Shown here: positions 5,204 through 44,439 of the stretch, piece after piece | Numbering within the stretch: position 1 is the first letter of the stretch | Layout of the letters: each line of letters opens with the position of its first letter | Origin: Eledone cirrhosa | Lineage: Eukaryota | Reading direction: 5' to 3' | Assembly (NCBI GenBank): GCA_964016885.1 | Contig: OZ024751.1 | Location: 7,006,001 to 7,070,000, forward strand | DNA: 64,000 bases | The notes under the pieces: generated by a model | Databases searched by the model: none | Told to the model about the DNA's origin: nothing | What the model saw: the letters and a program-made list of their open reading frames with translations, nothing else | Made by a program: the position numbers and the translations under genes

Positions 5204-5406
5204 TAATAAACGAAGCTAAATTTTAATCATTTGACTTTTATTTAACTTTATTTTACACTACTCCGGAGTAACCAAACCAACCTGCGCACTTCGTCGAGTG
5301 CTCCAGCCTGCATACTGAGGTGTTGGTATACAACCAACATAAACTCAAAATCTATCTAGCTCCCACACGGGTTGAGCGCTCCAAACAGTAGCGGACCTAA
5401 GTCACT

Positions 5407-8074
5407 ATGGATAAACTGGCAACCTTAGCGTCACTGAAGGACATCCCCCTACCTGATAAACGAGAATACACCAGTGATCTCATCAAGAGTACGGACTCCC
5501 CCATCCGTAGGATGAGATGGAAGGCGTTCCACTTCGAAAGAGGAACGCAGAAAACTACCAACACAGAAAACATGGAGTACCTTTTTCAATCAAGGAGGAA
5601 TCCCCCCCCCCCCACAACAGACTAATGGAGGAGTTTGAAAACGAGATGATTAACATCATATCCAACCTCAAATTCTCCGGAAACCCAACCAGAAGTCAGG
5701 AGTACCTCAGACACCTGAGAAACCGGATTACAGTACTTAAAGGGACAACTGGAATACTTGTCCATGCTGACAAAACAAACAACCTCTACAACATGAACAC
5801 TGAACTGTACAATAAGCTAATCCTCAGGGAACTGAGGAAGTGCTACAAAAAAAACACCTGGATTTACCCTGGATGAGATCAATGCCACAGCTTACAGGAT
5901 TATATCCAGAATCGGCATAGAGGACAGGACGGCCCCATACCAACCAAGGGAGCCGCGGCTTACCCTTAAAGACCACAAGTCAAACTTTGAGTCAGACCTC
6001 CATGTGAGACTAATAGCCTCCTCCAGATCTGACCTAGGGATCGTCCGTAAAAGAATACTGGATAGGATTTTGCCCAAGCTTCGGAAGAAAACCAAATTAC
6101 AGCAATGGTCATGCAGAAGAGAAGTAATAGAATGGTTCAAAATACTGTATGAGAAAAGTAGGACCAGCTTTATACAACTGGACATCGCAAGCTCCTCAAT
6201 CTCACCCATAGTACTTAATAGCGATGTCCAATACGGACCTAACCCGAGAGGAGGTGAGCATCATCCACGCCGCAAGAAAGACCTTAATCCGCTTCGATGG
6301 AGACCTTTGGACCAGGAGTGATTGGCCAAATAACTTTGACATCACGATGGGCTCCAGCGACTCAGCGCAGGTAACGGACCTGGTTGGGCTCTACCTGCTG
6401 AAGCAGATAAAAGATGAAATTCTCTGCCTGGGCGGCGGATTATATCGTGACGATGCTCTATTCACAGTACATGACCACAGCACCAATATGTTGGAGGGTA
6501 TGAGGAGGCGTATTCGCCATTTCTTTAAGAACCAGGGGCTCAGCATAGAAATAGACCCAAATAGGAAGGTAGTTAACTTCCTAGACACCACCCTAAACCT
6601 GAACACCGAGCAATACTACCCCTACCACAAGCCCAACGAGAAACTCGTATATGTTAACGCCAAATCAAACCACCCTAGATCCATAACCAAGGCAGTGGTG
6701 AAGAGTGTCTCGGACAGGATCTCCAGCCTGTCCGCAAGTAAGGAAATATTCAACAACCACGCGGAATATTACAACGCAGCTCTAAAGAAGGCGGCACATG
6801 GACAAAATATAACATATAGTCCGAAAAGCCGGGAGGTGGATAGCCCAACAGACACCTACAACCGCGTTGCCAGAGGGGGGAGGGCGAACCCTAGCAATAC
6901 AGGCAGAGCAGAATCAAATAGGCACCATGTACCAGACACCACCACACGGGCGGTGGGGACTAGTGCGCTTGACCACGAGATGGAGCACAATATGAGTAGC
7001 AGTCTCAGGCGTGACGCTAACTACCCCAGGACGGACAACCCCAACCGCAGGACACGTAGGGGGGGGGGGGGAAACGGGCGAACACCCCACGATGGATCTC
7101 CGGGGGCGGACAACAACCATCCCACACATCCGGGCCGCGAAGATAACAAAAAGTATAGAGCTCAAAAGGGAAGCAACAGTGCGGAAACCACCAGCAACCC
7201 AACAAATCTCCAACAAATCACGAAGCCCCCAACCCACACATATCGGAGAAGACACCGACAAATCACGTGGTACAACCCACCCTACTCAGCGGCCCTAAAG
7301 AAAAGCTTGGCCCGATTATTCTTTGGAGCACTTGACAAATGCTTCCCGAGGGACCACAGATACCACAGGATCTTCAACAGACACACTGTGAATCTTTCGT
7401 ATTCCACCACGAGAAATTTGGCCCAACACATAGCTAGCATCAACAGAAGTAGGCTTAAAAACCACACACAACCAGAAGATGGCAATACAAACACTCAGCA
7501 GAACCATGTGAAAGGAGGGAAAGGGGGACCCATAGCCCACCCAAGAAACACAAACAGACCCAAGGACCCCCCACCGAGCATGGGGGAAGACCAACATGTA
7601 ACACATAATGAGAACCCTAATATAGGCACGCAGAGGCCGACCACCCTCTGCAACTGCAGAAACCCCGAATCATGCCCCCTTGGTAATGAATGTCTCAAGA
7701 AGAACCTAGTGTACGGTTGTAGGGTTAAAACCCCCAACTCCGAACACCTCTACATAGGAGACACATCAACGAGCTTTAAGGACCGCTGGTACAACCATCG
7801 CCATTCATTCCAGAAGGAGGCCAAAAGGAAAAGCACAGCTCTCTCCGACCTGATCTGGAAGCTTAAGCTGGACAGGACCCCATACTCTCTGGCCTGGTAC
7901 ATAATCAGGAAAGTACCACCCGATAAAGGGGGATCTTGCATATGCAAACTATGCCTGAACGAGACCCTCGAGATACTAAGAGGTGGAAGCGGCCTGATAA
8001 ACCTCAGAACCGACTTCTTCGGGACATGCAGACACCTTAGAGCCGGGACCTTTCTCAAGATATATGGACAGTAG
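5407..8074 (+). pseudogene. Frameshifted PLE polyprotein: reverse transcriptase + GIY-YIG endonuclease
   Basis: Overlapping ORFs 5407-5625, 5517-5876, 6004-6321 and 6224-8074. Motifs: ADKTNNLY, FDITMGSSDSAQVTDLVG, LYRDD, FLDTTL, YHKP, SNHP, WYNPPY, CNCRNPESC (CxCx5C), LVY..YIG..FKDRWYNH, CKLC, LRTDFFGTCRH. Confidence 0.93.
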
Positions 8075-9285
8075 CAACACAAGAAGATGTGAACTCCCCC
8101 CAAGCTATAGGGACTTCTACAGAACATGAAAACACCTCTCGGCCAGACCTCCCTCAAGCTATATGGGCAATAACAACACCCTAGGTTGTGAACTCCCCTC
8201 AAGCCACAGGGAACAACCCAGGCAGAGCAGACACCATGATAGCCTAGAGATAGAATCGGACACAGCCATAATAATTTGGCCAACATCTATAACACAAACA
8301 CTTTTAATTTACCAGATTTCTGACTTTCAAGTTCCAATCTTAAATCTTGATTTCTCTTTATTAATTTGTTTTTTGTTTTCTGCCCTCTTCACTGTATCAC
8401 CTTATATTTATTTTAAGTTGAGATAGATTATAACACAAACACATTGAATATCTCATCTTAACATCTTGTCTCATATCAATCTATCCAACATATTCTGACC
8501 TTGAGATTGGTTATAGCACACACACACACACTTTATCCTACATTATTTCTCACCTCTCCATATACATTATCATTACTTTTTCACCAATCTCTCATTTACT
8601 CTTTATTCTTCATTCTCTATTTATTTATTTATTTTCAAATTACACAAATTATATTAATTACTTTATTATATTATTTATTTATTTTCTGTTTTCTTCATTT
8701 ATTGCCATATATTTCTTCATATACATGAAATAACCCCCCCCCCCCCCACACACACACACCACTACGATGGTGGCGGGAGGGATGAAGAAAAAACACAAAC
8801 TGGATACTTCTAAATTGTTAGCAGCAGCAAGATATAAGCTGACCACTACAACAACAACAGTACCAAAATAATGGTGGATGTCAAATGTACTGAACAATAG
8901 CAGGCAAAAACACTACAGGGAGCCTCACCCCAGAAAGAATTCTATAGACTTCTGACTGAGGAATGCTCTCAGAACTGAACAATGGGAAGTTTGACACTTT
9001 TTTTGTTATTTTGTTATTTTGTTCCTTTAACACCTTGTCCCTTCTACCATTTTATCAATTTTTAAGCTAAATCCAACAATAACAACACTTAGAATGAGGA
9101 ATGTTCTAATAACTGACCAATGAGAGGAGAAGGGGACCTGTGACACTGAAATTTGTTTGTTTGAATTCATATGACTCCATTTCCCCAGTGAATTAACAAC
9201 CCAACAAGGAACTGGGCATATCAGAGTATTGACAATATCATACACCTAAACAACATATGTACTTGTCTATACCATACTAATTCAA

Positions 9286-9340
9286 ACTGCCTGAAGAGGT
9301 CACAGCCAAAGATGGCTGTCACTGAAATATATATAGCAGT
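9286..9340 (+). ncRNA. Type I hammerhead ribozyme (3' pLTR)
   Basis: actgc-CTGAAGA-ggtcacagcca-aaga-tggctgtcact-GAAA-tatata-TA-gcagt: stem I actgc/gcagt, ~10 bp stem II, palindromic stem III. Confidence 0.88.
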
Positions 9341-9389
9341 AATAAACGAAGCTAAACTTTAATCATTTGACTTTTATTTAACTTTATTT

Positions 9390-10626: not shown

Positions 10627-13600
10627 TAAGGAAAAGAGATGAAAACGAAAATGCAACTGGAATCATTTTTTTTTATAATATATATATTTATTTGGTTCCT
10701 CTAACGGTTTCGCAGTGCTTCTGCTTTTCACAAGTGGAGTTGAGATGGAGGGTCTGTGGTTTTTCTCCCATCTGGTTGGTCTTTGAATGTTACTTGTTTT
10801 ATATGGAAAAAAGTGGCTCCAAATGCCAGGTTTTTAGAGAAGTAGTTTGATTGGTTGGTGAATAAGTATAATAAATTTCGCGCCAGTTCGCATTACAAAG
10901 TTTTTCAAACAGAGAGGGCTCAGGTTGTTTTCTTCATATATGAGTGAAGTTTAGTTGGTTGATGCAGTCACGTGAATAAGCACATCAGCCTTCGCGCTAG
11001 TTTGTGTTTGAATTTCTTTTTACTTAAAGAAAAGTGGCCCACGAAGGCTTTTTTTTAAATGTAACTAGATTGGTTATAAATGAAATTTTGACTGACACGT
11101 GAACAAATTCATTAAATTTCGCGCCCATATTTGGGAATTTATTTTGTAGCCTTTTAGAGAATTATGTGCCAAACAAAAAATAATGGTGAAGAAAAAAGGG
11201 ATGGTGAGAGTCGTTCTGAGTAAGACTGATGTGCTGAAATGTAATGTGATTGGTTATGAATGAAATTATGGCTGTCAAGTGAAAAAGTTCATTAAATTTC
11301 GCGCCCGCATTTGGGAATTTATTTTGTAGCCTTTTAGAGAATTTTGTGCCAAACAAAAGATAATGTTCAAGACAAATAGGATGGCGAGAATTGTTCTGGT
11401 TCAGTGAATATGGCTGGTCTGCTGGGGTCTCAAAATTCAGACTTTCTATTGAAATAAAGGAAGTAGAGATATGTATGTTTGTTTGTCTGCTTGTGTGTGT
11501 GGTTGTGTGTGTAGGAAGATGATTCTATTAGTAGAAATGGGGAAGGGAGTTGTGTGTGTGTATGGGTGTTATGTGTGTGTGTGTGTGTATGTGTGTGCGG
11601 GAGTATGGTTGGCATGTTAAAATGGAGAGAACATATATATTTTGTGTGTGTGTGTGTATGTGTGTAGGAAAGTGATTCTATTAGTAGCAATGAGGAGGCA
11701 GTTGTGTGTGTAGTGGCGTGTTATGTGTGTGCGCATGGGTGGTATGTGTGTGTGTGTGTATGTGTGTGTGGGAGTATGGTCAGCATGTTAAGATGGAGGG
11801 AATATATATATTTGTTTGTGTATGTGTGTGTAGGGAATTGATTCCGTTAGTTGAAATGAGGGAGGGAGTTATGTGTGTGTTGGGTGTGCGGATAGGATGT
11901 TAAGGTGTTAGAGTTTTAACGTATGTTGAGGTTTATTTAGTTCTGCTTTTTATTTTCTAAAGTAGAAGGTGTTATGTGTGTGTGTATGTATGTGTCTGTT
12001 TGGATGGTTAGCATGTTATGGTGTTGATATAATGTATATTAAACTATATTTAATGCTGGTCTATATTTTTGAATAAACATATTTTCCTTATTTATTCGTA
12101 TTTGTTCTGTTGTATTGTCAGCGCAAAGATAAAATGGGAAGACTTGGAATGTGGGTGTCTTATTACCTGCGCATATGTCTAGATGTGCACTTAGTGGTAT
12201 CTGTCAAGTGGTTGGATCTCGTAATTGTTGGCGATGAACTGTCATTCTGTTTCTGAGTGTGAGTTTAGTTTGTCCTATATAATCTTCATTGCAACCTTTA
12301 CATGTAATGGCATAAAGCAGATTTTTTGATGAGCAAGTGAAGTGATTTTTACAGCAAAATGTTGTCCTGATTGAAATGTATACGTGTTGCCTTCAATGAG
12401 GTGAGTGCAGGTTCCACAATTAGAACGACCACATTTTTTGACAGTTGGTTGTGTGTTTGTGGTAGGTAATTTGGCATTGGTGAGTAATGTTTTTAGTGAT
12501 TTCGGTTGTCTTTTGCTTTTGATTATATTGTGTGTTTCAATGGTTTTTTTCATTCTTAGGTCTTGTTTCAATAGTGGAATGTTCTTGTGAATCGTGTTGT
12601 AACCTTCCGCATTTCTTCGGTTGTGTGTAGAGATATATGATAGAATATTGGACGTACCTTGAATTTGTTTCTGTTTTCGTAATTCATCAATGCCTATTGC
12701 TTTAGCTCTTTCTAGTCCATTATTTATTATTAATGGTGGGTACTGACTTTCGAGTAAAATTTCATTTAATTCTTGGAGTCTTTTATTTCTCGTTTCATAA
12801 TTGGAGACAATTGTGCAAATTCTTCTTGCTAGGTTAAAAGGGATGTTCGTCTTCGTGTGTTTTGGATGGTTGGAGGTGAATAGCAGGTATTGTTTGGAAT
12901 CTTTTGGTTTCTAGTGTATGTCAGTTTCAATATTGTGTCTTTTTATAAGATTAAGATGTCCAGAAATGGGAATTGATCTTGGCTGTATTCCATTGTGAAT
13001 TGGATGTGGTTATTGATGCCGTTAATTACATTTTTGAAATCATTTAGGTGGTCGAGTGTGTGAGACCAAAGAATGAGACAATCATCCAAGTAGCGTTTCC
13101 AATTCTCTGATAAATATTTGTGGAAGTTCAATCCGTATTCTCTCCATCTTAACATGCTAACCATATTCCCACACGCACACATAACACCCATACACACACA
13201 CATAACACCCAATCAAACACACAACTCCCTTCCCCATTTCTACTAATAGAATCACTTTCCTACACATATAAAAAAAACACAAAATATATATATTCTCTCC
13301 ATCTTAACATGCTGACCATACTCCCACACACACATAACACCCATACACACATACATAACACCCACAGACAAACACAACTCCCTCCCTCATTTCTAGTAAT
13401 AGAATCACTTTCCTACACACATACACACAAAATATATATATATTCTCTCCGTCTTAACGTGAATGCATCAACCTACCAAACTTCACTCAAATATGAAAAA
13501 ACAACCTGAGCCCCCCCCCCCCTTGTTTGTAGAACTGTGAAACACGAACTGGCGCGAAATTTATTATACTTATTCACCAACCAATCAAACTACTTCTCTA

Positions 13601-13872
13601 AAAACCTGGCATATCGAGCCACTTTTTTCCATATAAAACAAGTAACATTCAAAGACCAACCAGATATAAGAAAAACCAGAGACCCTCCATCTCAACTCTA
13701 CTTTTGAAAAGCAGAAGAACTGCGAAACCGTTAAAGGAATCAAATAAATATATAGATTAAAAAAAAAAAAAGATTACAGTTGCATTTCCGATTTCATCTT
13801 TTTTCATTATAATTTCACTCGTGTAGGACACCGGTTACGTTTCATTTTGTTAAAAAAAACCTAACTTTCTAA
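10627..13872 (-). mobile_element. Truncated PLE (Neptune-like) on the minus strand with an inverted plus-strand copy of its 3' region (13136-13872)
   Basis: RT fragment WKRYLDDCLILW..FTMEYSQDQFPFLDILI (12943-13140). Cys knuckle KCGRSNCGTC plus GIY-YIG remnant (12060-12570). Terminal region 10627-10950 is the reverse complement of ~13470-13808. TA runs on both flanks. Confidence 0.88.
13701..13736 (+). ncRNA. Minimal hammerhead ribozyme, U3-A8 core variant (more degenerate minus-strand copy at 10698-10734)
   Basis: ctt-TTGAAAA-gcag-aagaa-ctgc-GAAA-ccgt-TA-aag. Confidence 0.65.
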
Positions 13873-15024
13873 TATATATATATATATATATAATAAGGAA
13901 AAGCGAAGTAGTTTCAGATGTTCAAGTCCTTTAATAATGAGCGCTCTATGATGTTACCGATATGGTGGAGAAGAGAGGAACCAACCAAGAGCTACCCCGG
14001 AAATTCCTTCTACAATGGGGATGAAAACCCCTGACACTGGACGGGCATAATAGTAACTTTCAGCAGAATAAATAAGCGGAAACAAAAAATAAGATAAACC
14101 CCTATTTTCCTGCACCAAATCGCATTTGAACAGAAGCCCCCTCAATTCAATCTATACATGGACAGATGGACAATCATATGGATCATTTTGCATATATGTA
14201 CTCTGTGTTTTTGCATTTATTCACTATTGGTTCTGTTCTTTTCTTTTCTTTTGGGTACTTTATGTCTGTTTTTCTTTGATTTTGTTCCATGTGATTGAAA
14301 TTATGACTGTGTACCAGATTGACTAATGCCTTGAACCCTGTAGTTTGCCCTCCGTTATAATGTACGGCACTGTCGTTCAATGTGTGGATAGAGTAACTGT
14401 GACACTAGAATCCCTCTCAGAACTTATTACTTAAACATCTCTCTCCATATTATTTACTCACTTCAATCTATATTTTTACTCAATCCGAAATTATCACTTG
14501 AAAGATTTTTGAATTCCGAATTTTTTAATTTTTTAATTGTTTAATTTATAATCTCTGATATTTGATTCACGATCTTAATTTTTAATTTTTATTTCCAACT
14601 CTCACTCTTAACTTACAATGTAAATCCATGGTACCTAGAATTAAGTTTATTTTCCCTGATGAGTTGATGGTCAGTCTTGCTGTCAACGCTTAGTGAAAGG
14701 TAGTATTATGACCTATACAAACTAACACCCTCCCATCCTCTCTGGCTTTCGGCTGACTGCCACAGTCGTGATGGGTAGCAGTAAACTTTGGTAGGGCATA
14801 GGTGGGCCATTGGTTTGGCTGAGAGGGTGAACTGACAGCGAATTTCGTTGAAATCTGCGGTGGCTAATCGTCAACTTCCTTCGGACATGCGCTTGCGCAG
14901 ACCGGTGGGGGTGAATTTGTACTCACAAGGGAACGGATGAAAAATACAAAAGCACGAACTTCATCCGTTCCCATGTCGATTCAATTTGGAATGCCTCGCA
15001 AACATAACCTTATTATGTAACAAG

Positions 15025-15096
15025 CTGTTTGATGATGACACGACACTCGCACACAGAACAGTGTGGCCAGTGTCGTCATTGAAATATATATCACAG
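15025..15096 (+). ncRNA. Hammerhead ribozyme copy with C3->U substitution (likely impaired)
   Basis: ctgt-TTGATGA-tgacacgacact..agtgtcgtcatt-GAAA-tatata-TC-acag. Confidence 0.6.
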
Positions 15097-16332
15097 AATA
15101 TTATTAAAGGACTTGAACATCTGAAACTACTTCGCTTTTCTTTATTAGATATTTACTCCGTCACTCCTATGTGGAAAAAGTACGTTGAGTGCTTGAATTG
15201 AATTGCATCAATGTTTACCCTAATAATTTAGCTCCAATTAGTTGAGCGCTCTATGATGTAACCGATATGGTGGAGAAGAGAGGAACCAACCAAGAGCTAC
15301 CCCGGAAATTCCCTCTACCATGGGGATGAAAACCCCTGACATTGGACGGGTATAATAGTAACTTTCGGCAGAATAAATACGCGGAAACAAAAAATAAGAT
15401 AAACCCCTATTTTCCTGCACCAAATCGCATTTGAACAGAAGCCCCCTCAATTCAATCTATACATGGAGAGATGGACAATCATATGGATCATTTTGCATAT
15501 ATGTACTCTGTGTTTTTGCATTTATTCACTATTGGTTCTGTTCTTTTCTTTTCTTTTGTGTACTTTATGTCTGTTTTTCTTTGATTTTGTTCCATGTGAT
15601 TGAAATTATGACTGTGTACCAGATTGACTAATGCCTTGAACCCTGTAGTTTGCCCTCCGTTATAATGTACGGCACTGTCGTTCAATGTGTGGATAGAGTA
15701 ACTGTGACACTAGAATCCCTCTCATAACTTATTACTTAAACATCTCTCTCCATATTATTTACTCCCTTCAATCTATATTTTTACTCAATCCGAAATTATC
15801 ACTTGAAAAATTTTTGAATTTCGAATTTTTAAATTTTTTAATTGTTTAATTTATAATCTCTGATATTTGATTTAGGATTTTAATTTTTAATTTGTATTAC
15901 CAACTCTCACTCTTAACTTACAATGTAAAACCATGGTACCTAGAATTAAGTTTATTTTCCCTTATGAGTTGATGGTCAGTCTTGCTGTCAACGCTTAGTG
16001 AAAGGTAGTATTATGACCTATAAAAACTAACACCTTCCCATCCTCTCTGGCTTTCGGCTGACTGCCACAGTCGTGATGGGTAGCAGTAAACTTTGGTAGA
16101 GCATAGGTGGGCCGTTGTTTTGGCTGAGAGGGTGAACTGACAGCGAATTTCGTTGAAATCTGCGATGGCTAATGGTCATCCTCCTTCGGACATGCGCTTG
16201 CGCCGACCGGGGGGGGGGGGGAATTGGTACTCACAAGGGAACGGATGAAAAACCCAAAAGCACGAACTTCATCCGTTCCCATGTCGATTCAATTTGGAAT
16301 GTCTCGGAAACATAACCTTATTATGTAACAAG

Positions 16333-16404
16333 CTGTCTGATGATGACACGACACTCGCACACAGAACAGTGTGTCCAGTGTCGTCATTGAAATATATATC
16401 ACAG
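16333..16404 (+). ncRNA. Type I hammerhead ribozyme with long stem II
   Basis: ctgt-CTGATGA-tgacacgacactcgcacacagaacagtgtgtccagtgtcgtcatt-GAAA-tatata-TC-acag. Palindromic stem III, AUC triplet. Confidence 0.8.
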
Positions 16405-16528
16405 TATTATTATTAAAGGACTTGAACATCTGAAACTACTTCGCTTTTCCTTATTCGATATTTACTCCGTCATTCCTATGTGAAAAAAGTACATTGAGTG
16501 CTTGATGTGAATTGCATCAATGTTTACA

Positions 16529-16580
<52 letters not shown>

Positions 16581-16658: not shown

Positions 16659-16848
16659 TGTGTCGACAAATCTACAAAAATATACGTTAGTGTCCAATCC
16701 GTATGGAGAACTCAATATAATCCAAATATCATGGAAAGAGAAGATGCATTCAAAAATTTTCGATATAAATCATAGGAAAACAGAGTCAAGATAAAGTAAT
16801 AAAAACAATGAAATAAAAACAAACACAAGTTCCTTATATAAAAAAATT

Positions 16849-16982
16849 CATCATTTTACGATCGTTTCTAGGACTTATATGTGTGTTGGTATGTATATCA
16901 TATAGATCTATGTAAAAATATTACAAATTATCAGGGGAAATATACATAACTTCACATACACATGCTGTCTTCAGAAATGATG
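16849..16982 (-). ncRNA. Type I hammerhead ribozyme with very long stem II (minus copy)
   Basis: Reverse-complement counterpart of 20828-20945, with a slightly longer stem II insert. Confidence 0.75.
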
Positions 16983-19900
16983 AGATGTGTTTATTGAAAA
17001 AACAAACAAAGATTTAATATAAAAAGTCTGTTTGGGAACAGGTTTTGAATTGACCAATAGAAAAGTAGTTAGAGATCAAGTTGAAAGAATAGTGGTAGTA
17101 GAAATTTAATTTAGGGGTAGAGGAGTACAGACTTATGTTTTGAATGAAAACAATACTTTGAATGAAAAGATTACTTTGGGGATGAAAAGATGTCAAGCCA
17201 GTGAAGGGTACACGAAAATTTGATGTTATTAAAGAATAATGTTAAAAATGAAGGAAAATAAAATGTTAGGGTAAGGGTTTTAGTGAGAAATACCAATCTT
17301 TAAACCACAAGGAATCTAAATCTATAACAAAAAATTGAATTAATTGATAGGTATACTTATAGGGATACATTTATATTAATTCATATTAATGTGATAAATA
17401 AGAATTAGATGTTATTAAAGAGTGTTGTTAAAAATGAAGGGTAGTAGTGAGAAAGGCCAATCTTATATAAACTACAAGGTATCTAGATTCATAACTGGAA
17501 ATTGAATTAATTTATAGGTATACTTTTAGGTATTAAATTTAGGAAAAGAGAGCTCTAAGAGGGAAATAAAATTATGAAGTTCTCTGTAGTAAAGTACTAA
17601 ATTACTAGGTTAACTAAATTATAAAAGACTAATTATAATGATATGTAAAATATAAGAGTAACGTGTATATTAATTAGGTTTATAATATTTGAAGGTTCTT
17701 CTATTTCTATGATTGCAAGATATAATTAATTCCTGTCGCTTATTTAATAGGATATCCTTAGATTTCATGATTTCAAAATGTTCCTGGGAGCATAACCTAC
17801 ACTCGTATCTGTTATTTTGATAAGGGGTGGCCCTTTTGAGCACACTCCAGGTCAGGTTGTAATCAATATTCTGCTTTCTATAATTATTAATTGTTTCAGT
17901 TAAGTATAATGATTAGCTAATGCGGCATTTTTACAACTATGTTTGTGGGTATTAAATCTTACATTAAATTGGTTAGACGTAGCTCCTATATATGAATAAG
18001 TGGAGTCCTTAGTGTTAATTTTACATTTATAGACTATGTTATTAATAAGACAATTTCCCTTTAATGGGCAATTTCTTTTGATTCTACAGTTACAACCATT
18101 CGTGAATATTATATCAAGGGAGATAGTCAAATTTGGTGTGGAATTTACTCGACTTGTTATAGGTGAAGTACATGGTGGTTTGTTGCGGTTTATTTTAGTA
18201 TTATCGTTGGTTTGATGTGTTGTTGGTTTATTTGTGTTTTGTTAACATGTATATGCGTTATACGCACTTATATTTTGTTGTATATTTTTGGTAGTGTAGT
18301 AGGAAAATTTGACAGTTGATCTATTTAAAATTTGATGGTATTTATGGTTTGGTGGGAAGTTTTTCTCTAGGATAGTATGACATTTTTTAGGGATATTATC
18401 TTTAATTTGTAGATTAAATCGAGCATTATACCAAGTAACCCGTCTATTACGGTTTCGATATTGTTTTTTATATTTTATTATATATAGTTAGATTAAATGA
18501 TTTAGGTGTTTTAGTCTGATTACTAGGAATTTTGTTAGTAGTGTTGTTAACATGAATTGGAGCATTAGGATGAATGTTTTTTTGAAAGTCATTATATTTT
18601 ATGTGAGAAGAGTTAGAGAAATTAAGTTTTAGGTTGGTATTTTTAGGTGTAGTATGAGTGGCATTTAGGTGTGGGTTTTTCATTTGGTGTTTATTGCTAA
18701 TATTCGATTGTATGTTTGAAGTATTATTGGTGCAAGGTATATAGACTAATTTGTTTTTGTGGCCGCTTCTAGCTAAAGTTTCGTTATAAAAGGGCGCGTT
18801 TTTATTGAATACATCCTTGTTAGATGAAAGGTTAGAGATTCTGAGTGAGATATGATATGCTAGGTTTTTAAGGATAGATCTAGGGTGCTTGGATTGTGAG
18901 TGTATGTAATGTAAGTTTTGGTTAGGTTTATGGTAAGGTTGGTATATACCCGTAGATAGGTCTAAAGTTATATTTAGGAAATTGACTATTTTACTGGTGT
19001 TTTCAAATGTAATAGTGAGATTGTAATAGTCTTTGAGAAAAGTTCTAAGTTTTTTATTTTTTCAATTTCTGATAGGCTAAGGTTAGTGGAAAGAAGAAGA
19101 CAGTCATCACGATATAAACCACCTTTAAGGTGGAGAAAAGATGAATTAATGTTAAATATAAGAAAGAGGCCCACTAGAGCCCATAGTAATGTCGAAGAGA
19201 TTACTATATGTATTTCTGGTCCAGTATTCCTTCTGAAACTCCAGTAGTGTTTGTCTAGCGTGCGTGATAATATTAATGTCATCCATAGTTAAGTTTGATT
19301 TATTTTTGGCAAATATCAAGGCTTTGTTCAGGAGTATGGGTGATATAGAGGAATAATACGCATCTATATCAAATTGTAGAAATGAAGCAGATGATTTATT
19401 TCTAATATTAGTAAACCAGTTAATTACTTGGGATGTCTTTTCCCAGAGTGGTAAGTTAACGTGTTTTCTTAATTGTGGGATGATTCTATCTAAAACAAAT
19501 TACCAATGATGCCAATATCTGACTTGGAAGGGCATATAGAAGGATTAGAGTTAAAGTTAGTTTTGTGATCTTTCAGGTTAAAGTGTGGTTTTTTTCAGTG
19601 CCAAAGGTTCCGTTCTGTCTTCAATAGTGAGTTTATTTACTATGTTCCATGTTTTGTTGTTGATATTGGTAAGAGCCACATTATTTGTTTTTTTAAAATA
19701 ATTTTTCCTGAGTTCTTTATAAATGAACTCATTGTAATTATCACTATCCATGTGATATAGATTTCCAGTTTTGTCTGATTGGACGTGGACTTTGCTAGAT
19801 TGTTTTAGATCCAATAGGGAAATAGTCAAGATCCTTTTGAAAATTAAATTCATATTTCGTAAATCTGAGGTGTTTGATTAAGTTAAATAGGTCTTTCTCG

Positions 19901-20827
19901 AACTTTTCAAGCAATGAGTTGTGTAGTGGGTTCTTATATGTGGTGAAATCATATAAATATTTATTATCATTAGAGTGTGCTCAAAAGGGCCACTCATTAT
20001 CAAAATAACAGATATGAGTGTAGGTATGCTCCCAGGAACTTTTTGAAATAATGAAATCTAAGGATATCCTATTAAATAGCGACAGGAATTAATTATATCT
20101 TACAATCATAGAATTAGAAGAACCTTCAAATATTATAAATCTAATTAATATACACTTTACTCTTATATTTTACATATTATTATAAATATTTTTTTAATTT
20201 ACTTAACCTATAATTAGTACAGAGAACTTCATAATTTTATTTCCCTCTTACAGCTCTCTTTTCCTAAATTTAATACCTAAAAGTATACCTATAAATTAAT
20301 TCAATTTCCTGTTATAAATCTAGATACCTTGTAGTTTATATAAGATTGGCATTTCTCACTACTACCCTTCATTTTTAACAACACTCTTTAATAACATCTA
20401 ATTCTTATTTATCACATTAATATGAATTAATATAAATGTATCCCTATAAGTATACCTATCAATTAATTCAATTTGTTGTTATAGATCTAGATTCCTTGTG
20501 GTCTAAAGAAGATTGGTATTTCTCACTAAAACCCTTACCCTAACATTTTATTTTCCTTCATTTTTAACATTATTCTTTAATAACATCAAATTTTCGTGTA
20601 CCCCTCACTGGCATGACTTCTTTTCATCCCCAAAGTAATCTTTTCATTCAAAGTATTGTTTTCATTCAAAACATAAGTCTGCACTCCTCTACCCCTAAAT
20701 TAAATTTCTACTACCACTATTCTATCAACTTGACAGCTAACTACTTTTCTACTGGTCAATTCAAAACCTGTTCCCAAACAGACCTTTTATATTAAATCTT
20801 TGTTGTTTTTTTTCAATAAACACATCT

Positions 20828-20945
20828 CATCATTTCTGAAGACAGCATGTATATGTGAAGGTATGTATATTTCCTCTGATAATTTGTAATATTAGATATA
20901 CATACCAACACACATATACATCCTAGAAACGATCGTAAAATGATG
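20828..20945 (+). ncRNA. Type I hammerhead ribozyme with ~80 nt stem II
   Basis: catcattt-CTGAAGA-c-ag-c-atgtatatgtg..ggtatg...catacc..cacatatacat-c-ct-a-GAAA-cgatcg-TA-aaatgatg: 8 bp stem I, palindromic stem III ACGATCGT, GUA. Confidence 0.85.
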
Positions 20946-21000
20946 AATTTTTTAATGTAAGGAACATGTTCTTTGTTTTTATTTCATTGTTTTTATGAAG

Positions 21001-21051
<51 letters not shown>

Positions 21052-21094
21052 AGGATATTAAATAAATGGAAACTATATTTATAAAACCAATTTT

Positions 21095-21156
21095 ATTTTA
21101 TTATATATTTTTCAAGGGTACCAAGATAACATTGGTACGCTTTCATCAGATAAAAT
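21095..21156 (-). ncRNA. Type I hammerhead ribozyme
   Basis: ttttat-CTGATGA-aag-c-gtaccaa-tgttatc-ttggtac-c-ctt-GAAA-aatata-TA-ataaaa. Confidence 0.72.
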
Positions 21157-21534
21157 ACAAAGTTTGTTTTATAAATAGAAACATACCCATGAAAATCATA
21201 CCTTATCGGTTGGAAATTCACTGGATAGTGGAAGTATATTAGGGATTATTCAAACTTATGTGTGAAAATGCAAATGAATATATAAATAATTGAAAAATAA
21301 CCGTTTATTTAAATGACACTGGAGAAAGAGAGAGTGAAGATATAAGGGTAGAAAGATAAAACATAGTAAGAGAGAGAGAGAGAGGAGAAAATAACCCGAC
21401 ATGATGAATAAAACTCATATAACGTTAGTTTGGGGGAAATATATTCTAAGTATGTATCTTAATAGTACGTATATTAACGATTATTAGTTGTTTAAAATGT
21501 GTTTATATAATTGTGTTTAAAATGTGTTTATATA

Positions 21535-21630
21535 ATTGTTTCTACTTTTGGCACAAGGCCAGCAATTACTCAGTGTATTACTGGTACTTTATTTTATTGA
21601 CCCCGTAAGGATGAAACGCAAAGTTGAATT
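21535..21630 (-). mobile_element. Meta-type SINE 3' fragment
   Basis: ttgtttctacttttggcacaaggccagcaattac..tactggtactttattttattgaccccgtaaggatgaaa. Confidence 0.75.
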
Positions 21631-22279: not shown

Positions 22280-22466
22280 GGCGGTGGATTGGCAGTATCG
22301 ATAGAGGGTCGGACGCCATGCTTTCCAGCATAGTTACGTCCCTTTACGATCTGAGTTCAAATCCCGCCAAGGTTGACTTTGCCTTTCATCCTTACGGGGT
22401 CGATAATATAAAGTACCAGTAATGCACTGGGTAATTGCTGGCCTTGTGCCTAAAGTAGAAACAATT
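22280..22466 (+). mobile_element. Meta-type tRNA-derived SINE
   Basis: ggcggtggattggcagtatcgatagagggtcggacgcc..gagttcaaatcccgccaaggttgactttgcctttcatccttacggggtcgataatataaagtaccag..ggccttgtgcctaaagtagaaacaat. Confidence 0.85.
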
Positions 22467-22847
22467 ATTTAAAGATATCAATATATTAAAATCAAGTGGA
22501 TAAGATTGTCATGGAAATTAGTAGAAATATTATAAGTATAATTATAATTTATATATATGTGCTGTAAATCAGTTATAAACATTTATATTCGTCTGACTTC
22601 CAAACAAATTAAATACCTCTTATACTTATATATATATATATAAGGGCGGGTAAAATTCCCGAGATCCATGGACGCGTTCTCTCCAGCGGTCTCTGTCCCT
22701 CATCATCGCTGCCATGTACAACCTCACCATCTACAACCATTTGACACACATCCCTGCTAACCATTATCACAACATCGAACACCTTACTACTACTACTACA
22801 CACACACACACACACACACACATATTTGTTGTGAAAGAGTCATTTCT

Positions 22848-24074: not shown

Positions 24075-24262
24075 GGTTTGTTGGTTCACCTCTGGATAGA
24101 AATGGTCATTCCATATGGTCAACCTCGATGTAATATTATGGAGAGCACTCGACGTAATGCAACTCACCCGGCTTCGTTTGTGTTGTTGGTGGTGCGAGTA
24201 TGGAGTTAATTATTATAAAATAACAGGAGGCTGCACTGGTGTAATTCCTTAAAAGGTTTATT

Positions 24263-24320
24263 ATACTATGATCATTTCTGTGACCGAGTTCAGTATGAAT
24301 CCGGTGAAATCATCAGGTTT
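24263..24320 (-). ncRNA. Type I hammerhead ribozyme in a ~470 bp TA-flanked insert (24072-24538)
   Basis: aaac-CTGATGA-tttcaccggattcatactgaactcggtcaca-GAAA-tgatca-TA-gtat. Palindromic stem III ATGATCAT; weak stem I. Confidence 0.68.
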
Positions 24321-24792
24321 TCGAAATTTAACAAAGGAATATAATAGTCAAAATCCATGGGGTTGAAAACCAGAGACAGGAGGGAGGCCGAATATTTAGC
24401 AGCTACTAGCCCGGTCAGACACTCTCAAGTGATGATTATTAAGTTTTCTCATGGCATTCTGGTTATAGTGTACTAATACCACCCCGTCATAGACAGAGTC
24501 CAGTGGTGAGATCAGGTTACATTCAAGCTGGTCAGAAGTATATATATATATAAATGAAAACTTAGTCAAACCACACACACACACAAATATATATATACGC
24601 ACATACACGGTATGTGCAAACTTACAATGTGTTTGTGATACTAACTGTAAAATATACGAGAATATAATATACGCAGTATAAATATTGTCAGGTGGAGGCG
24701 TCAAACGACAGGTAAACGACGCAAAATCGATCACATATAATTAGGAACACACAACTACGTACACTATATATATACATGTACATACAATATAT

Positions 24793-25435: not shown

Positions 25436-25600
25436 TGCTACTCTAAAAACATAAATAAATAAAAATAAACTATAGCTTTGTAGAATTAGCTTTTAATGAA
25501 TTCCCTTTTCTATCAACCAATGACCTGCACCCATCCCACTCCCCACCCTCCCCTACCACTTGTAGAGACCTATAAATACCATATTTATTTTTTGATACCC

Positions 25601-25651
25601 AGATTCCTGATGATTTCTAATGAATGAAACAGTTCTAGTCCTGTAGAATCT
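25601..25651 (+). ncRNA. Type I hammerhead ribozyme in a ~300 bp TA-flanked pLTR fragment (25434-25735)
   Basis: agattc-CTGATGA-t-ttc-taat-gaa-t-GAAA-cag-ttctagtc-ctg-TA-gaatct. Preceded by CCAAT (~25517) and TATAAATA (25571-25578). Confidence 0.85.
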
Positions 25652-25733
25652 CATCTATATTAAAACTTTTATACTCTGCTATGTATTGAGTACCTTACTT
25701 ACTGTGGTTACCTCCGATTCAACCCGGAATAAC

Positions 25734-26090: not shown

Positions 26091-27335
26091 ATCATCATCA
26101 TCATCATCAACGTTTAACGTCCGTGTTCCACGCTTGCATGGGTTTGGACGGGGGTAGTCCCACTTGAGGCAAGAGTGATTGTCTTGCTCGCATAGGACTG
26201 TCTGGCAGGTTTTCTACAGTTGGATGCCCTTCCTAACACCAACCACATTTACAGTGTGGGTCTGGGAGGTTTTTACCGTGTTGCCTACACGGCCACATTA
26301 CAGCGTGGACTGTGTGTTTTTTTGTCGTGACACCTACACGATCTCATTTGTTTCGGCCTCGATGGCGCGGCACCAACATAACTTTACATAGAACGGGGTG
26401 GTGTGGATCGGGTGGGGGTGGTGGGACGGGGTGTATTTGTTAGAGATGCCTACTGGCTGGAGTAGGTTTTACTATATATTTAGGTAAGGCGGGTCTTCTC
26501 TGTTACTGAGTACCGCCAAAGGTCTCGGTCCAGTGACATTGTCTTGGAGAGGTGTAAGTGTGTGATGTCGGAGTTTATCAGCTCGTCCCAGGTTTTTCTA
26601 GGTCTGCCTATTCCGTGACTACCGTCTATCTTTATTGCCCTGCACTTTGTTATACAGCTATCGACTTTCATGCGCATCACGTGTCCATACCAACGTAGCC
26701 TTCTCTCGAGTAAACAACATCTGATCCCTCTTATCTCTAATTTATTCCTTAGTTCGTTTATGCTTTGCCGTTCACGTATATTACTGTTACACATCCAGCG
26801 GAGCATGCAAGCTTCGTTCCTCTCTAGTCTGCGTATATCCTCTGCACACAATGCCCAGGTCTCACTGCCATGCAGCATTGCTGTTCGTATGCAGGCATCG
26901 TACAACCTGCCTTTCATTTTTAGTGAGAACCCTTTAGCAGCTAATAGTGGTATAAGCTCTCTGAACTTTTTCCAACCAGTTCTGACTCTAGCTACAGTAC
27001 TTTCAGAGCACCCTCCCCCACTGCTGATTTTATCGCCCAGGTAACGGAAGCTGTCCACTATTTCTATAGAACCCTCTGCGCAATTGAAAGAGCTAGTAGT
27101 TTTTGGGCACTTGCTGCTACTTATTGCACCAGAGCACCGGCCACATGTAAAATCTATGTTCTTAGTTAGCCTACCTGTGATCCCACTACATCTTTTATGC
27201 ACCCATACTTTGCATTTAGGACATAAAATGGAGTTTCTACCTACGCCTTTCCTACACACCGAGCACGACCATTTCCCAGAAGGGACCGCCGCCTTGTTTT
27301 CTTTCCTACAAACTAGTACTTTGGTCTTACGTTTA
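26091..27335 (-). mobile_element. 5'-truncated RTE-clade LINE: C-terminal part of the RT ORF with an embedded PHD-like Cys finger, 3' UTR and (GAT)n tail
   Basis: [81 protein letters not shown]; (atc)n tail at 26091-26108. Confidence 0.9.
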
Positions 27336-27345
27336 CATATATATA

Positions 27346-27509
<164 letters not shown>

Positions 27510-27528
27510 GCTTACATATATATATATT

Positions 27529-27577: not shown

Positions 27578-27880
27578 AAGAGTTAAACAATTTCAATGAG
27601 TATATCAAAAAATGAGTTTTACACTAATTTGGAAGCATTCTATGGAAAAATAAATGAGATGTTTTCCTAGATAATAATAAATTGTAGTGTCATACATATT
27701 AAAATCTCTAACTGTTACATTAAGCAACGTTTTTCTTACTCACACATTCTCTATTGAATTTATTATGTTTTCGCATTTTCTCATTTGTACAGTTTAAATG
27801 TTTAATTTTCTCTTAGGTTAATCACTACCTTGATTAAATCTTAACCATTTAACATCTCAGGGTATGTCATGTATCATTAT

Positions 27881-27933
27881 ATTTTGTCTGATGAGGACGT
27901 ACTGCTGTACATCAGAAATATGTATAATAAAAT
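27881..27933 (+). ncRNA. Type I hammerhead ribozyme in a TA-flanked insert (27575-27978)
   Basis: attttgt-CTGATGA-g-ga-c-gtac-tgct-gtac-a-tc-a-GAAA-tatgta-TA-ataaaat. Confidence 0.75.
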
Positions 27934-27973
27934 GTAATTGATGAAAAGAATATATATTTAATTAATATTTGTA

Positions 27974-28564: not shown

Positions 28565-29328
28565 AAAGAAAAAGAGATGAAATCGAAAATGCAACTGGAG
28601 TCTTATTTTTTTTAAAAATATATATATTTATTTGGTTCCTTTACCGGTTTCGCAGTTCTTCTGCTTTTCAAAAGGTGAGTTGAGATGGAGGGTCTGTGGT
28701 TTTTTTCACATCTGGTTGGTCTCTGAATGTTACTTGTTTTATATGGAAAAAGTGGCTCGAAATGCCAGGTTTTTCGAGAAGTAATTTGATTGGTTTGTCA
28801 ATAATTATAATAAATTTCGCGCCAGTTCGCGTTACAATAGTTCTTCAAATAAGAGAGGGGGGGGGGGGTTGTCACAGGTTGTTTTTTCATATATGAGTGT
28901 TTGAATTTCTTTTTATTTGAAAGTAAAAAGAAATTCAAACACTCATATATGAAAAAACAACCTGTGACAAACCCCCTCTCTTATTTGAAGAACGATTGTA
29001 ACGCGAACTGGCGCGAAATTTATTATAATTATTGACAAACCAATCAAATTACTTCTCGAAAAACCTGGCATTTCGAGCAACTTTTTCCATATAAAACAAG
29101 TAACATTCAGAGACCAACCAGATGTGAGAAAAACCACAGACCCTCCATCTCAACTCACCTTTTGAAAAGCAGAAGAACTGCGAAACCGGTAAAGGAACCA
29201 AATAAATGTATATATTTAAAAAAAAAATAAGACTCCAGTTGCATTTTCGATTTCATCTCTTTTTCTTTATACTTTCACCCGTGTAGGACACCTCGGTTAT
29301 TTTTCATTTTGTAAAAAAACCCTCACCC

Positions 29329-29333
<5 letters not shown>
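28565..29333. mobile_element. Fold-back (palindromic) pLTR of the Neptune-like family with two oppositely oriented U3-A8 HHRs
   Basis: 28565-~28912 is the reverse complement of ~28926-29270, followed by an extra 3' tail to 29333. (TA)n on both sides; homologous to 13490-13872. Confidence 0.88.
29158..29195 (+). ncRNA. Minimal type I hammerhead ribozyme, U3-A8 core (identical minus copy at 28638-28675)
   Basis: cctt-TTGAAAA-gcag-aagaa-ctgc-GAAA-ccgg-TA-aagg. Palindromic stem III ACCGGT, GUA triplet, AATAAA shortly downstream. Confidence 0.8.
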
Positions 29334-29535: not shown

Positions 29536-29576
<41 letters not shown>

Positions 29577-29579
<3 letters not shown>

Positions 29580-29763
29580 GTTTCTACTTTTGGCACAAGG
29601 CCATCAATCACCCAGTACATTACTGGTACTTTATTTTATCGACCCCGTAAGGATGAAAGGGAAAGTTAACCTCGGCGGGATTTGAACTCAGACCGTAAAG
29701 GGACTCAACTATGCTGGAAAGCATGGCGTCCGACCCTCTACCAATACTGTCAATCCACCGCCC
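29577..29763 (-). mobile_element. Meta-type tRNA-derived SINE
   Basis: Full-length reverse-complement copy of the 22280-22466 SINE. Confidence 0.85.
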
Positions 29764-29988
29764 TTATATATGTATATATATAATGGTACCTTGATTTACG
29801 AGTTTAATTCGTTCCGTGAAGAAGCTCGTAACACAAATTACTCGTATGTCAAATCAATTTCTCCATTTAAATCAATTGAAATGTCATTAATCCGTTCCGG
29901 GGCCCCAAAAAACACCGCAATTTTTTTTGTCACGTGTTTTTAAATAAGAAAACAGAACTCATAAATAACGAATATTGTATAAAAAATA

Positions 29989-30175
29989 TTTATTTCTACT
30001 TTAGGCACAAGGCCAGAAATTCCCCAGTGCATTACTGGTACTTTATTTTATCGACCCCGTAGGGATGAAAGGCAAAGTCAACCTCGGCGGGATTTGAACT
30101 CAGATCGTAAAGGGAAGTAACTATGCTGGTTAGGATGGCGTCCGACCCTCTACCGATACTGCCAATCCACCGCCC
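29989..30175 (-). mobile_element. Meta-type SINE inserted in the Tigger element with an 11 bp TSD
   Basis: tataaaaaata at 29978-29988 and 30176-30186 flanks the SINE. Confidence 0.85.
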
Positions 30176-30316
30176 TATAAAAAATAATAATACCATAGAA
30201 TGTGCTGCAGTAAACTGATTTTATTAAGTACAATGTACACCATTTATCTTGGAGATCAGATGATTTGAGGATGTTGATGGAGGTGGAGGACGAAGGCTGA
30301 ACTGAATAACTGAATC

Positions 30317-32025
30317 TTATTCGCTGACTTTTGTCCTTTTCGCCACGCTTTCCTCACTTTTATCTGCAGGAGTTTTCGATAAAAACCTGTCTACTGAGGT
30401 TTGTTTTATTCTCCCTCTCAGAATGTTTCTGAAATGAGTTAGGCAATATTCATTAATAGCGCTGTCGTAAGCCCAGTTGCAACTTTTTCCGGGTATTTGT
30501 TTTGAATAAATTCTGAAAGTTTCTCGCACATTTTTTCCCCAATATTTCCTATATCTCACATGTAGAGAGAACCTCCTCCGTGTCACCTATTTCCTGCAAC
30601 ACCTCCGTGTGCTGCTGCATCTGTAGCACCTTTAGCTCCTTCGTTGTCAGTTCCTCGGAGTGCTCCTGGATGAGCTCATTGATTTCACCTTCATCCATGT
30701 CCAGGTCTATGGACTTGCCAATGTATACAATCTCTTCCACTAATGCCGCTTCGGGTTCTAGTCTTTCGAAGTCCGTTTCAGACACAACCTCAGGCCACTG
30801 CTTCTTCCACGCAGAAGTCGATGTTCTGTTTGTAACACCTTGCCAGGACATATCGATAATTGTGAGGCATATCACGATGTTATAGTGGTCCTTCCAGAAC
30901 TCCCTAAGGGTGAGGTTTGTGCTCTCGGTCACCTGAAGGCAGCGGCAGAACAGGTGCTTGGTGAAGAGCTGCTTGAAATCATTTGAAATCACCTGTTGGT
31001 CCGTGGGCTGCAGGATAGGGGTAGTGTTGGGTGGAAGTTATAAACATTTATAAACTTGATCTCTTCGAGGATGTCGTCTTCGAGTTTAGGTGGGTGAGCA
31101 GGTTCATTGCGCATGACAAGAAGGGCTTGCAGAGGTAGGTTATTTTCCTGGAGATATTTCTTAACATCAAGACCAAAGACCAAATTCACCCACTCCACAA
31201 AGGATTTCCTGGTGACCCACGCCCTCGGGTTTGCCCCCCACACAACCTGCAGTTTTTTTCTTTCAGAATATTATGTGGCTCTGGGGTTTTCCGCATGATA
31301 AACGAGCAGCGGCTTAATCTTGCAGTCGCGGCTCGCATTGGCACAGTGTGAGGGTTAACCTATCCTTCATGGTGTGTGGCCTGGCATCCTCTTCTTCTCT
31401 GCCATTATATAAGTCGACCTTGGCATCTTCTTCCAAAATAGTTGTGTGTTGTCACATATGAAGAATTGCTGAGGGATGTATCCTTCGGTTGCTATAATTC
31501 CGGCAAACGTTTTGAGGTAATCCTCAGCTGCATTCATATCCGCACTCGTTGCCACACCATGTCTGACAAAGGAGTGAATGCTGGACCACTTTTTAAAATT
31601 CTCGCACCAGCCCGACTGGCTTTAAACGGTTTGCCCTATGCCTCGTCCGTCGAAGTACCTGGGGTCTGCTGCAGCAAACAGCGTAAAAAGCTCGTGCCTT
31701 CATGCAGATTATAGTCTCCGTCAAGGTATCTATTGCGAGCTGCTTCTCCGTCAAACACACTATCATCAGCTTTTCCATATTTTCATGGATAGATGTCCGC
31801 TGTTTAGATATTATTTTAAATCCCTTGGCTGGCGTTATAGATTTTATCGACTCTGTCTTCTTCAGTATGGTGCAGATCGTAAAAGTGCTACGCTCGTACT
31901 GCTTCGCCAAGTCGACTACACGCATACCATGATCGTTTATCGTTAATTTCTTTCTTTAATTCAATACACATCATCCGCTTCTTCTTCTCAGAACTGCCCT
32001 TCGTGCTCACTTTCTGCCGATCCAT
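30317..32025 (-). pseudogene. Frameshifted Tigger-type (CENP-B-like HTH + DDE_1) transposase
   Basis: KKKRMMCIELKKEI, DLAKQYERSTFTICTILK, QQFFICDNTQLFWKKMPRSTYI, WGANPRAWVT, LLVMRNEPAHP, TLREFWKDHYNI across several frames. Confidence 0.88.
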
Positions 32026-34252: not shown

Positions 34253-34258
<6 letters not shown>

Positions 34259-44353: not shown

Positions 44354-44439
44354 AGGAGGTGAGTTTTATTGTAGTACAATAAAGCAATGCAGATATCGGA
44401 TAAGAAGCACTCTACAGTTTGTATGACTGGAGTATACAT

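Follow-up and report, generated by a model that had tools for sequence, protein, structure and literature searches.

The hammerhead at 20827 to 20946 of the window (the whole 64-kb stretch of DNA that was analysed) leaves the first base pair of stem II open. Judged by sequence comparison, this open 10.1/11.1 position is a clade-wide, family-fixed state of the hammerheads in Hydra-clade Penelope-like elements (PLEs), and not a result of decay. Four lines agreed on this, namely Hydra-type loci from outside the window, the U/U pairing among them, a reverse transcriptase (RT) tree and published consensus sequences. The motifs are dimer-type type I hammerheads, probably of low activity, that sit in PLE pLTRs, chiefly those of the Hydra clade and its non-coding derivatives, and would work by the mechanism proposed below. 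The long stem II of the same motif is a local trait separate from the open pair.

Hammerheads and their elements in the window

The window is AT-rich (33% GC), microsatellite-rich animal DNA, with remnants of several PLEs, two non-LTR retrotransposon pieces and one DDE transposase piece. The hammerhead-bearing loci were as follows.

20827 to 20946, forward: type I hammerhead, read from the sequence and the predicted fold
19973 to 20996, forward: inverted 5'-truncated copy of the 3' end of H2, with the endonuclease end, the 3' UTR and the hammerhead
16799 to 19973, reverse: H2, a broken Hydra-clade element with DKT, an RT with GLYRDD, a CxCX5C linker plus a C-terminal GIY-YIG
5131 to 9389, forward: H1, a Hydra-clade element between direct-repeat hammerheads (cores 5155 and 9291)
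54372 to 57209, reverse: H3, a Hydra-clade element with hammerhead 54464 (A-U; C.U at pair 4)
13892 to 16530, forward: tandem 1.3-kb element with hammerheads 15029 and 16337 (U.U, 45-nt domain II, C.C at pair 4)
34253 to 34834, reverse: non-coding unit with a C.A hammerhead (core 34380; predicted cut after 34310)
60292 to 63220, forward: tandem array of five C.A hammerheads (cores 60808, 61371, 61939, 62500 and 63062; spacing 561-568 bp)
38801 to 40193, forward: tandem pair of U.U hammerheads, 38885 and 39889, with a branched domain II of 95-97 nt
21055 to 21231, reverse: hammerhead 21149 (A-U, C.C at pair 4), with a relative at 38369 on the forward strand
25482 to 25666, forward: hammerhead 25607 (U.U, 12-nt domain II), with a relative at 40344 on the reverse strand, 75% identical and also U.U
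27861 to 27970, forward: hammerhead 27888 (G.A, C.A at pair 4), with a relative at 36894 (G.U, C.C), 72% identical
43925 to 43975, forward: canonical PLE-type hammerhead 43932 with a bulged U and then G10.1-C11.1, the internal control
449 to 497, reverse: hammerhead 490 (A.A, 13-nt domain II), single copy
45545 to 45590, reverse: damaged hammerhead 45580 (U.U, 12 nt), 374 nt downstream of the non-Hydra GIY-YIG remnant 45954-46403
63390 to 63433, forward: damaged hammerhead 63397 (U.U, 11 nt), within a palindrome whose left arm holds a Hydra-type hairpin
24260 to 24325, reverse: damaged hammerhead 24316 (U-A, C.C at pair 4)

The anatomy of the first of these motifs could be read directly. The core CUGAAGA (20836-20842) and GAAA (20926-20929) were present, as were the UH core, three helices and the open-ended stem I of type I hammerheads, and cleavage was predicted after A17 (20937). 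Stem I contained 9 bp (20827-20835/20938-20946). At the base of stem II, where type I hammerheads have a pair at 10.1-11.1, preferably G-C, C10.1 (20843) faced A11.1 (20925) and the pair was open. A second mismatch, C10.4.C11.4, lay at 20846/20922, and domain II measured 83 nt. Stem III (20929-20936) was a perfect 8-nt palindrome with a predicted duplex energy of -10.0 kcal/mol and no predicted monomer hairpin. The 119-nt fold had a z value of -5.35, with none of 200 shuffles equally stable. The palindromic, unstable stem III is that of minimal PLE hammerheads (Cervera 2014), but a symmetric 1x1 C.A replaced their bulged 9.1 nucleotide and following G10.1-C11.1. Reading a bulge at 9.1 into the motif yielded A.A and no G-C, and across the window this reading rescued 43932 alone.

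The 19973-20996 copy was 92.6% identical to 16799-17847 over 1054 nt (self-BLAST) and stopped at (TA)n about 60 nt past the cut. The 3' hammerhead of H2 itself (core 16974) also had C.A, with a 99-nt domain II. Both H1 hammerheads carried G.U at 10.1/11.1 and C.C at pair 4, and that of H3 formed one family with a palindromic pair at 44540(-)/44655(+). Translations and profile matches of H1-H3 contained the DKT motif, the CxCX5C linker and the C-terminal GIY-YIG of the Hydra clade (PMC8557442), and the structural marks of that clade were found in the window as well: a pLTR with a hammerhead, an inverted 5'-truncated copy and a (TA)n target. In an RT tree with unnamed homologs only, the window rows made up a long-branch group. 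Families 490, 38885 and 45580 could not be linked to the Hydra clade, and hammerhead 43932 followed, on the downstream side, a GIY-YIG remnant of non-Hydra type (43286-43657). PLE remnants outside the Hydra clade that retain a Cys-rich linker or endonuclease were seen at 42703-43657 (+), 12048-13110 (-) and 45954-46403 (-); no hammerhead was found downstream of the 12048-13110 remnant.

Naiad elements have 'half-core' hammerhead motifs with long gaps, as far as the accessible descriptions go. A link to them was rejected, the window ORFs being of the Hydra type or of the non-Hydra type with C-terminal GIY-YIG; the cephalopod Naiad 3' ends in the available part of the PMC8557442 supplement were also unlike the window motifs by eye. 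Several Naiad consensus ends in the same partial source, described there without canonical hammerheads, resembled hammerhead cores by eye, in which stem II would be long and branched or GAAAC would precede CUGAUGA.

The remaining repeats of the window were varied. Near-perfect palindromes occupied 44441-44754, 60292-60515, 63326-63463, 53481-53879, 63486-63873 and 28566-29267. Three of them were fold-back junctions of hammerhead-bearing ends, and the palindromes attracted spurious sub-threshold microRNA matches. Two non-LTR retrotransposon remnants (AP endonuclease and RT, with a PHD finger in one) and a DDE_1 transposase remnant accounted for 57349-60159 (+), 26483-27511 (-) and 30552-31955 (-). 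Two short interspersed repeat families, SINE- or MITE-like and of 87-94% identity, were present at 21527-21624, 22280-22470, 29576-29764, 29986-30176 and 52786-52936 (family 1) and at 10627-10976, 13454-13871 and 28566-29332 (family 2), and a 37-bp minisatellite at 35268-35563. On viral contigs, a pattern scan for the TATATA-type motif gave 120 matches, none with stems, and a protein-profile scan found no relative.

A structure-aware scan of the window returned 18 motifs scoring at least 32, against none in each of 12 local dinucleotide shuffles. The 28 window loci were sorted into 14 families by self-BLAST and by eye. Position 10.1/11.1 was U.U in five families, C.A in two, A-U in two, and A.A, G.U, mixed G.A/G.U, U-A and the canonical bulge with G-C in one each. 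A weak candidate at 45290-45389 (-), with G-C and an 84-nt domain II that contains an internal tandem duplication, was truncated by (TA)n; it scored 23 and was left out, and counting it would raise G-C from 1 of 14 families to 2 of 15. Domain II was 45-99 nt long in four families and 11-36 nt in ten.

An earlier note on this DNA had named the 10.1/11.1 nucleotides at 14 positions, all of which were confirmed. It described them as mismatched in many families; 12 were indeed open, but two were G.U wobble pairs, and its list omitted the A-U families (21149/38369 and 44540/44655/54464) and the canonical 43932. The stem II domains of 50-100 nt that it reported were present at seven of these positions (45-99 nt; 4 of the 14 families), the others having 11-31 nt. 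Because domain II was short at half of the named positions, the open pair and the long stem II are not one package, and the proposal of a single variant combining them was not supported.

Several motifs were damaged or inconsistent. The core read CUGAGGC in 63397, U16.1 was missing from 45580, GAAA was GAAG in 40344, and C3 was altered in 15029 and 38369. The relatives 27888 and 36894 disagreed (G.A versus G.U). In the predicted monomer ensembles of 16974, 16337, 60808 and 34380 the core was mostly mispaired.

The first pair of stem II across the Hydra clade

The comparison set consisted of 95 loci with Hydra-type RTs, taken from metagenome and genome contigs. Scanning gave 107 motifs in 71 of them, versus 0-2 in five shuffles. 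A cognate motif was present in 67 loci, with G-C in 29, U.U in 27, G.U in 5, A-U in 3, A.A in 2 and C.A in 1; C-G or U-A occurred in none of the 67. Locus L128 had C.A in both of its pLTRs. The other 28 loci were without an assigned motif, and 19 of their tails, inspected by eye, showed short flanks, contig ends or damaged cores and no clear long stem II. At the loci L121-L215 the upstream hammerhead preceded the start of the ORF by a nearly constant 185-217 nt. Hydra-type elements were also seen on contigs filed as bacterial genomes (L198-L215), which are probably host DNA.

The outside motifs fell into 42 mutually related clusters, in which 10.1/11.1 was paired in 22, versus 21.7 when shuffled. 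Positions 10.2 and 10.3 were paired in 41 and 42 clusters, rates partly inflated because the scan required pairing in stems I and III and part of stem II. Domain II spanned 10-31 nt, and none of the 42 clusters had a long stem II. Wherever 10.1 was U, U11.1 stood opposite (18 of 18 clusters). On an RT tree of 70 rows, where the window rows have long branches and a biased composition and L212 probably has a wrong assignment, the position changed between open and paired at least 10 times; coupling between the open pair and an odd stem III spacer was unsupported on this tree (median p 0.5). The observed states might be joined by single changes, running from G-C over G.U to U.U and from G.U over A-U and A.A to C.A.

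Decay of dead genomic copies would be an alternative, and the broken ORFs and damaged cores of the window favour it, as does the 20836 copy, which, at many further places, disagrees with almost every related read. However, U.U outnumbered the one-step mismatches in the outside loci. U.U is two changes away from G-C, so decay would not favour it. It also stood in published consensus sequences: in a by-eye count of 25 Hydra consensus motifs in the part of PMC8557442 File S2 at hand, 14 had U.U, 7 G-C, 2 G.U, 1 U.C and 1 a bulge with A-U. The C.A state, for its part, was common to the 60808 array and the 34380 unit, which are about 70% identical and differ by two compensatory changes in stem II. 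For U.U and C.A the decay reading is, on these comparisons, largely refuted, and as a general explanation we regard it as very unlikely. The recurrent variant that the earlier note suspected is supported as family-fixed. The single-copy states A.A (490), G.A (27888) and U-A (24316) may nevertheless be decay, given the age of the window copies and the damage to several cores.

Public DNA runs showed the 20836 family to be high-copy. Summed depth was highest at the hammerhead end, as expected from the 5' truncation of the copies, and the longer apical form seen at 16974 was common among the reads. The 20836 copy differed from the reads at 483 places, and neither 20843 nor 20925 was among the 40 best supported of these. 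For a fixed C.A in this family the read data are weak support.

Covariance models had been expected to under-detect these motifs, and Rfam did miss them. Its hammerhead families, with clan members such as Hammerhead_1, HH9 and HH10, gave no match at the gathering threshold in the whole window; between 20780 and 21200, 19 matches at E<=10 included no hammerhead, and neither did the best 150 of 239 weak matches in the window. The mismatch is not the cause, because Rfam found no hammerhead in 20 outside loci, 10 with G-C and 10 with an open pair, so that under-detection concerns the whole class.

Element ends, twin hairpins and a junction at a predicted cut site

The tails of Hydra-clade elements contained two hairpins 3' of the hammerhead cut, about 60-70 nt apart, each with covarying 4-bp arms followed by RCU. 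The arms were GCUC/GAGC (51), UCUC/GAGA (4) and GCAC/GUGC (2), with ACUC/GAGU in the window. At least one hairpin was found in 35 of 45 distinct tails and two in 22, versus 0.6% and 0.02% in shuffles, with the pattern taken from the same data. The sites were as follows.

5260-5299, 5359-5377, 15156-15247, 16464-16499 and 37004-37028, forward: hairpin sites
44409-44433, reverse: hairpin site
Outside loci, e.g. L122-L134: hairpin loci

Element ends at (TA)n lay at bimodal distances after the cut. Genomic copies stopped 30-150 nt 3' of it, just ahead of either hairpin. The 3' end of H1 was 6 nt ahead of its hairpin 1 (hairpins 5260-5299 and 5359-5377), while the main copy of the 13892-16530 element stopped 9 nt ahead of hairpin 2 and its inverted copy 9 nt ahead of hairpin 1. 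The ends of 19 of 37 terminated copies could be placed on a longer relative, and 16 of the 19 lay 3-9 nt ahead of a hairpin. Eighteen were within -6 to +12 of a hairpin versus 5 expected, a comparison that involves related families, an interval set after a first look and two poor mappings. We infer that the twin hairpins are candidate signals for starting or positioning the RT. The inverted piece 13892-13938 starts 8 nt past the cut position of the 16337 family.

The hammerheads were seen to lie at element ends, and one 5' junction coincided with a predicted cut. The 34253-34834 unit began at the first base past the predicted cut of its own C.A hammerhead, was preceded by a fold-back copy (34835-34864), and continued through an intact downstream copy to 57 nt beyond the cut. 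The unit looks like a copy of an RNA that was cut upstream and left uncut downstream. This was one of about ten 5' junctions in the window, and none at a cut site was found in the outside loci.

By eye, 34744-34769 (-) and the matching part of the array units seemed to hold a variant of hairpin 1 with GUUC/GAAC arms, 8 nt after the element end; if so, the array would be a non-coding derivative of the Hydra clade. Like non-LTR retrozymes, it consists of non-coding units in tandem, five in number, that all hold a type I hammerhead, and by its sequence the array is retrozyme-like.

Proposed slow cleavage and the long stem II

Cleavage, its rate and the part played by the hairpins are proposed here from sequence. 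In a tandem transcript, two hammerhead copies would pair through stem III, a palindrome of 8-10 bp, and their cleavage would be slow or incomplete, perhaps with help from the protein of the element. The Hydra-clade motifs do without the bulged 9.1 nucleotide of other PLE hammerheads; instead 10.1/11.1 shifts among G-C, G.U, U.U, A-U, A.A, C.A and G.A, and pairs 10.2 and 10.3 would hold the stem II helix. We take the geometry at 10.1/11.1 to be, most likely, a stacked non-canonical pair adjoining the sheared G12.A9. Full-speed cleavage would not be needed and may harm. The RT would start ahead of a hairpin 3' of the uncut copy; since the ends lie 3' of the cut and ahead of the hairpins, the downstream hammerhead would have to be uncut at that moment, and the upstream one, once cut, could set the 5' end of the RNA. 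Long stem II would most simply reflect growth of loop 2, tolerated in ribozymes without a contact between loops 1 and 2. Of the properties that had been suggested for these motifs, deliberately slow cleavage is plausible, dependence on dimerisation fits the perfect stem III palindromes without a monomer hairpin, and dependence on protein fits the assistance published for another PLE hammerhead (PMC11167929).

The open pair might itself be a selected brake, because with a G-C pair the ribozyme would cut too early, ahead of RT engagement with the downstream hairpins, and the template would be lost. Three observations would suit a brake: the cut has the ORF on one side and the inferred RT start sites on the other, a single one of the 14 window families has G10.1-C11.1, and the 34380 unit has the look of a copy made from RNA that was cut upstream but not downstream. 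However, G-C stands in 29 of the 67 outside elements, whose hairpins and end spacing are the same, and a brake would then be dispensable or be supplied by dimer dependence alone; the state also flips repeatedly on the RT tree. Given so many relatives with G-C in the same layout, we consider selection of the open pair doubtful. Still less probable, and hardly to be expected, is that the motifs have lost cleavage and persist as structures for dimerisation or RT binding. Insertion in vitro did not need cleavage in another PLE (PMC11167929), and minimal PLE hammerheads were barely active in vitro (PMC4209133). Against this, the core and a non-G cleavage triplet were kept in 42 of 42 clusters (partly by scan design), comparable U.U motifs cleave (PMC7229834), and one junction lies at the predicted cut site.

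The long stem II raised a similar question. C10.4 was mismatched in 7 of 14 window families versus 0 of 30 outside clusters, and in these seven, two pairs were followed by the mismatch (C.C in most) and then by a long helix. They also had a 6-nt palindromic spacer in common and may be one lineage. The C10.4 mismatch, or the pyrimidine-rich internal loop of the 60808/34380 family, could compensate for the weak junction through a tertiary contact or a contact with protein. Such a function is suggested by the frequency of the mismatch in the window while neighbouring pairs covary, and by the open pair in all four families with a domain II of at least 45 nt. In the 60808 and 34380 motifs, moreover, 5-6 nt of the internal loop are, by eye, complementary to the conserved flank on the 5' side of stem I, much as in the stem I-II pseudoknots of PMC3088659. 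The candidate pseudoknot sites are 60795-60828 and 34360-34393 (-). But the four shortest families (11-13 nt) are open too, lengths differ within families (83/99, 20/31), the apical parts of 34380 and 60808 cannot be aligned, the seven C10.4 families may have one ancestor (the H1-H3 group on the RT tree), and the pseudoknot, with two copies, has no covariation support. The very long domains II consisted of low-complexity fold-back sequence of varying length within families, which fits tolerated growth; we judge a functional stem II with a contact role rather unlikely.

Open first pairs of stem II have precedents. A natural U10.1-U11.1 hammerhead is active, and U.U is the best-tolerated mispair (Perreault et al. 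2011, PMC3088659). It shares the open first pair with the window motifs but is presented there as rare, and the filter of that study dropped core-adjacent mispairs, mostly in repeats. HHR_Amex2, with about 60,000 axolotl copies, has U.U at the base of helix II; its monomer cleaves 22% in 1 h and its dimer much more (Cervera and de la Pena 2020, PMC7229834). It resembles the 563-bp array in its tandem non-coding repeats, and window families in its U.U, but differs in a short canonical stem II with loop-loop contact and a 350-bp unit. That U.U can be natural and active at this position is already known from these two papers.

Among PLEs, the Hydra-clade hammerheads of Craig et al. 2021 (PMC8557442) are closest to those of the window, with the same clade, 3'-end place and (TA)n insertion, and with U.U in 14 of 25 families; the U.U motifs are labelled 'canonical', with no remark on the pair, in the portion available. 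In that portion stem II has 3-7 bp, domains of 45-99 nt and the C10.4 mismatch do not appear, C.A occurs only in a plant PLE-X family, and no description of the downstream hairpins was found. The minimal hammerheads of PLEs (PMC4209133; Cervera and de la Pena 2014) share type I, palindromic stem III, the dimer model, low activity and a longer-than-usual helix II, but have a bulged 9.1 and a highly conserved G10.1-C11.1, to which only 43932 conforms in the window. Their larger helix II of 7-8 bp and minimal helix III contradict the statement of the earlier note that PLE hammerheads are usually minimal in stem II. Non-LTR retrozymes (Li et al., bioRxiv 10.64898/2026.07.22.740005) resemble the 60808 array in tandem non-coding units and pLTR-derived type I hammerheads; by the accessible part of that report they are mainly vertebrate, whereas the array is known here from DNA alone.

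The green anole element Poseidon offers the closest parallel for the ends (Frangieh et al. 2024, PMC11167929). Its RT begins synthesis at two internal sites, located 3' of the hammerhead cut, with which the genomic ends agree; its hammerhead is protein-assisted, uncleaved RNA is the dominant insertion substrate, and no RNA-seq reads of the green anole PLE start or stop at the cut. The Poseidon start sites lie in an AC-rich stem-loop inside the ORF, whereas the ends described here stop 3-9 nt short of two conserved hairpins in the UTR. In the open-licence literature we found no description of family-level C.A, the C10.4 mismatch, the twin hairpins, the clade-wide frequency of U.U or an element with its 5' end at a C.A cleavage site.

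Should the open pair be no more than tolerated, it is a useful annotation point and little beyond. As the first stem II pair, supposedly near-invariant, is free across the clade, these ribozymes are undercounted whenever a descriptor search rejects mispairs next to the core, and the window supplies natural C.A, A.A and G.A junctions for kinetic tests. The spacing between hairpin and element end is a concrete candidate RNA signal for initiation by the RT of a telomerase-related enzyme. We also consider, as a speculative and on balance unlikely possibility, that the Hydra-clade pLTR is a three-part RNA device, made of an attenuated dimer hammerhead and two RT-binding hairpins, in which slow cleavage is selected. 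Cleavage would be tuned by the non-canonical 10.1/11.1 and, here, also by a contact of the C10.4 mismatch on the long stem II. Hairpins of the GCUC/GAGC type would bind the telomerase-like RT and set its start 6-9 nt upstream; the upstream hammerhead copy would be cut to give the RNA 5' end, and the downstream copy would keep the hairpins on the template. The role of PLE hammerheads is given as unknown in the literature accessible to us. Such a device, if true, would provide a testable reason for the weakness of PLE hammerheads and a sequence-defined origin of the PLE 'tail'.
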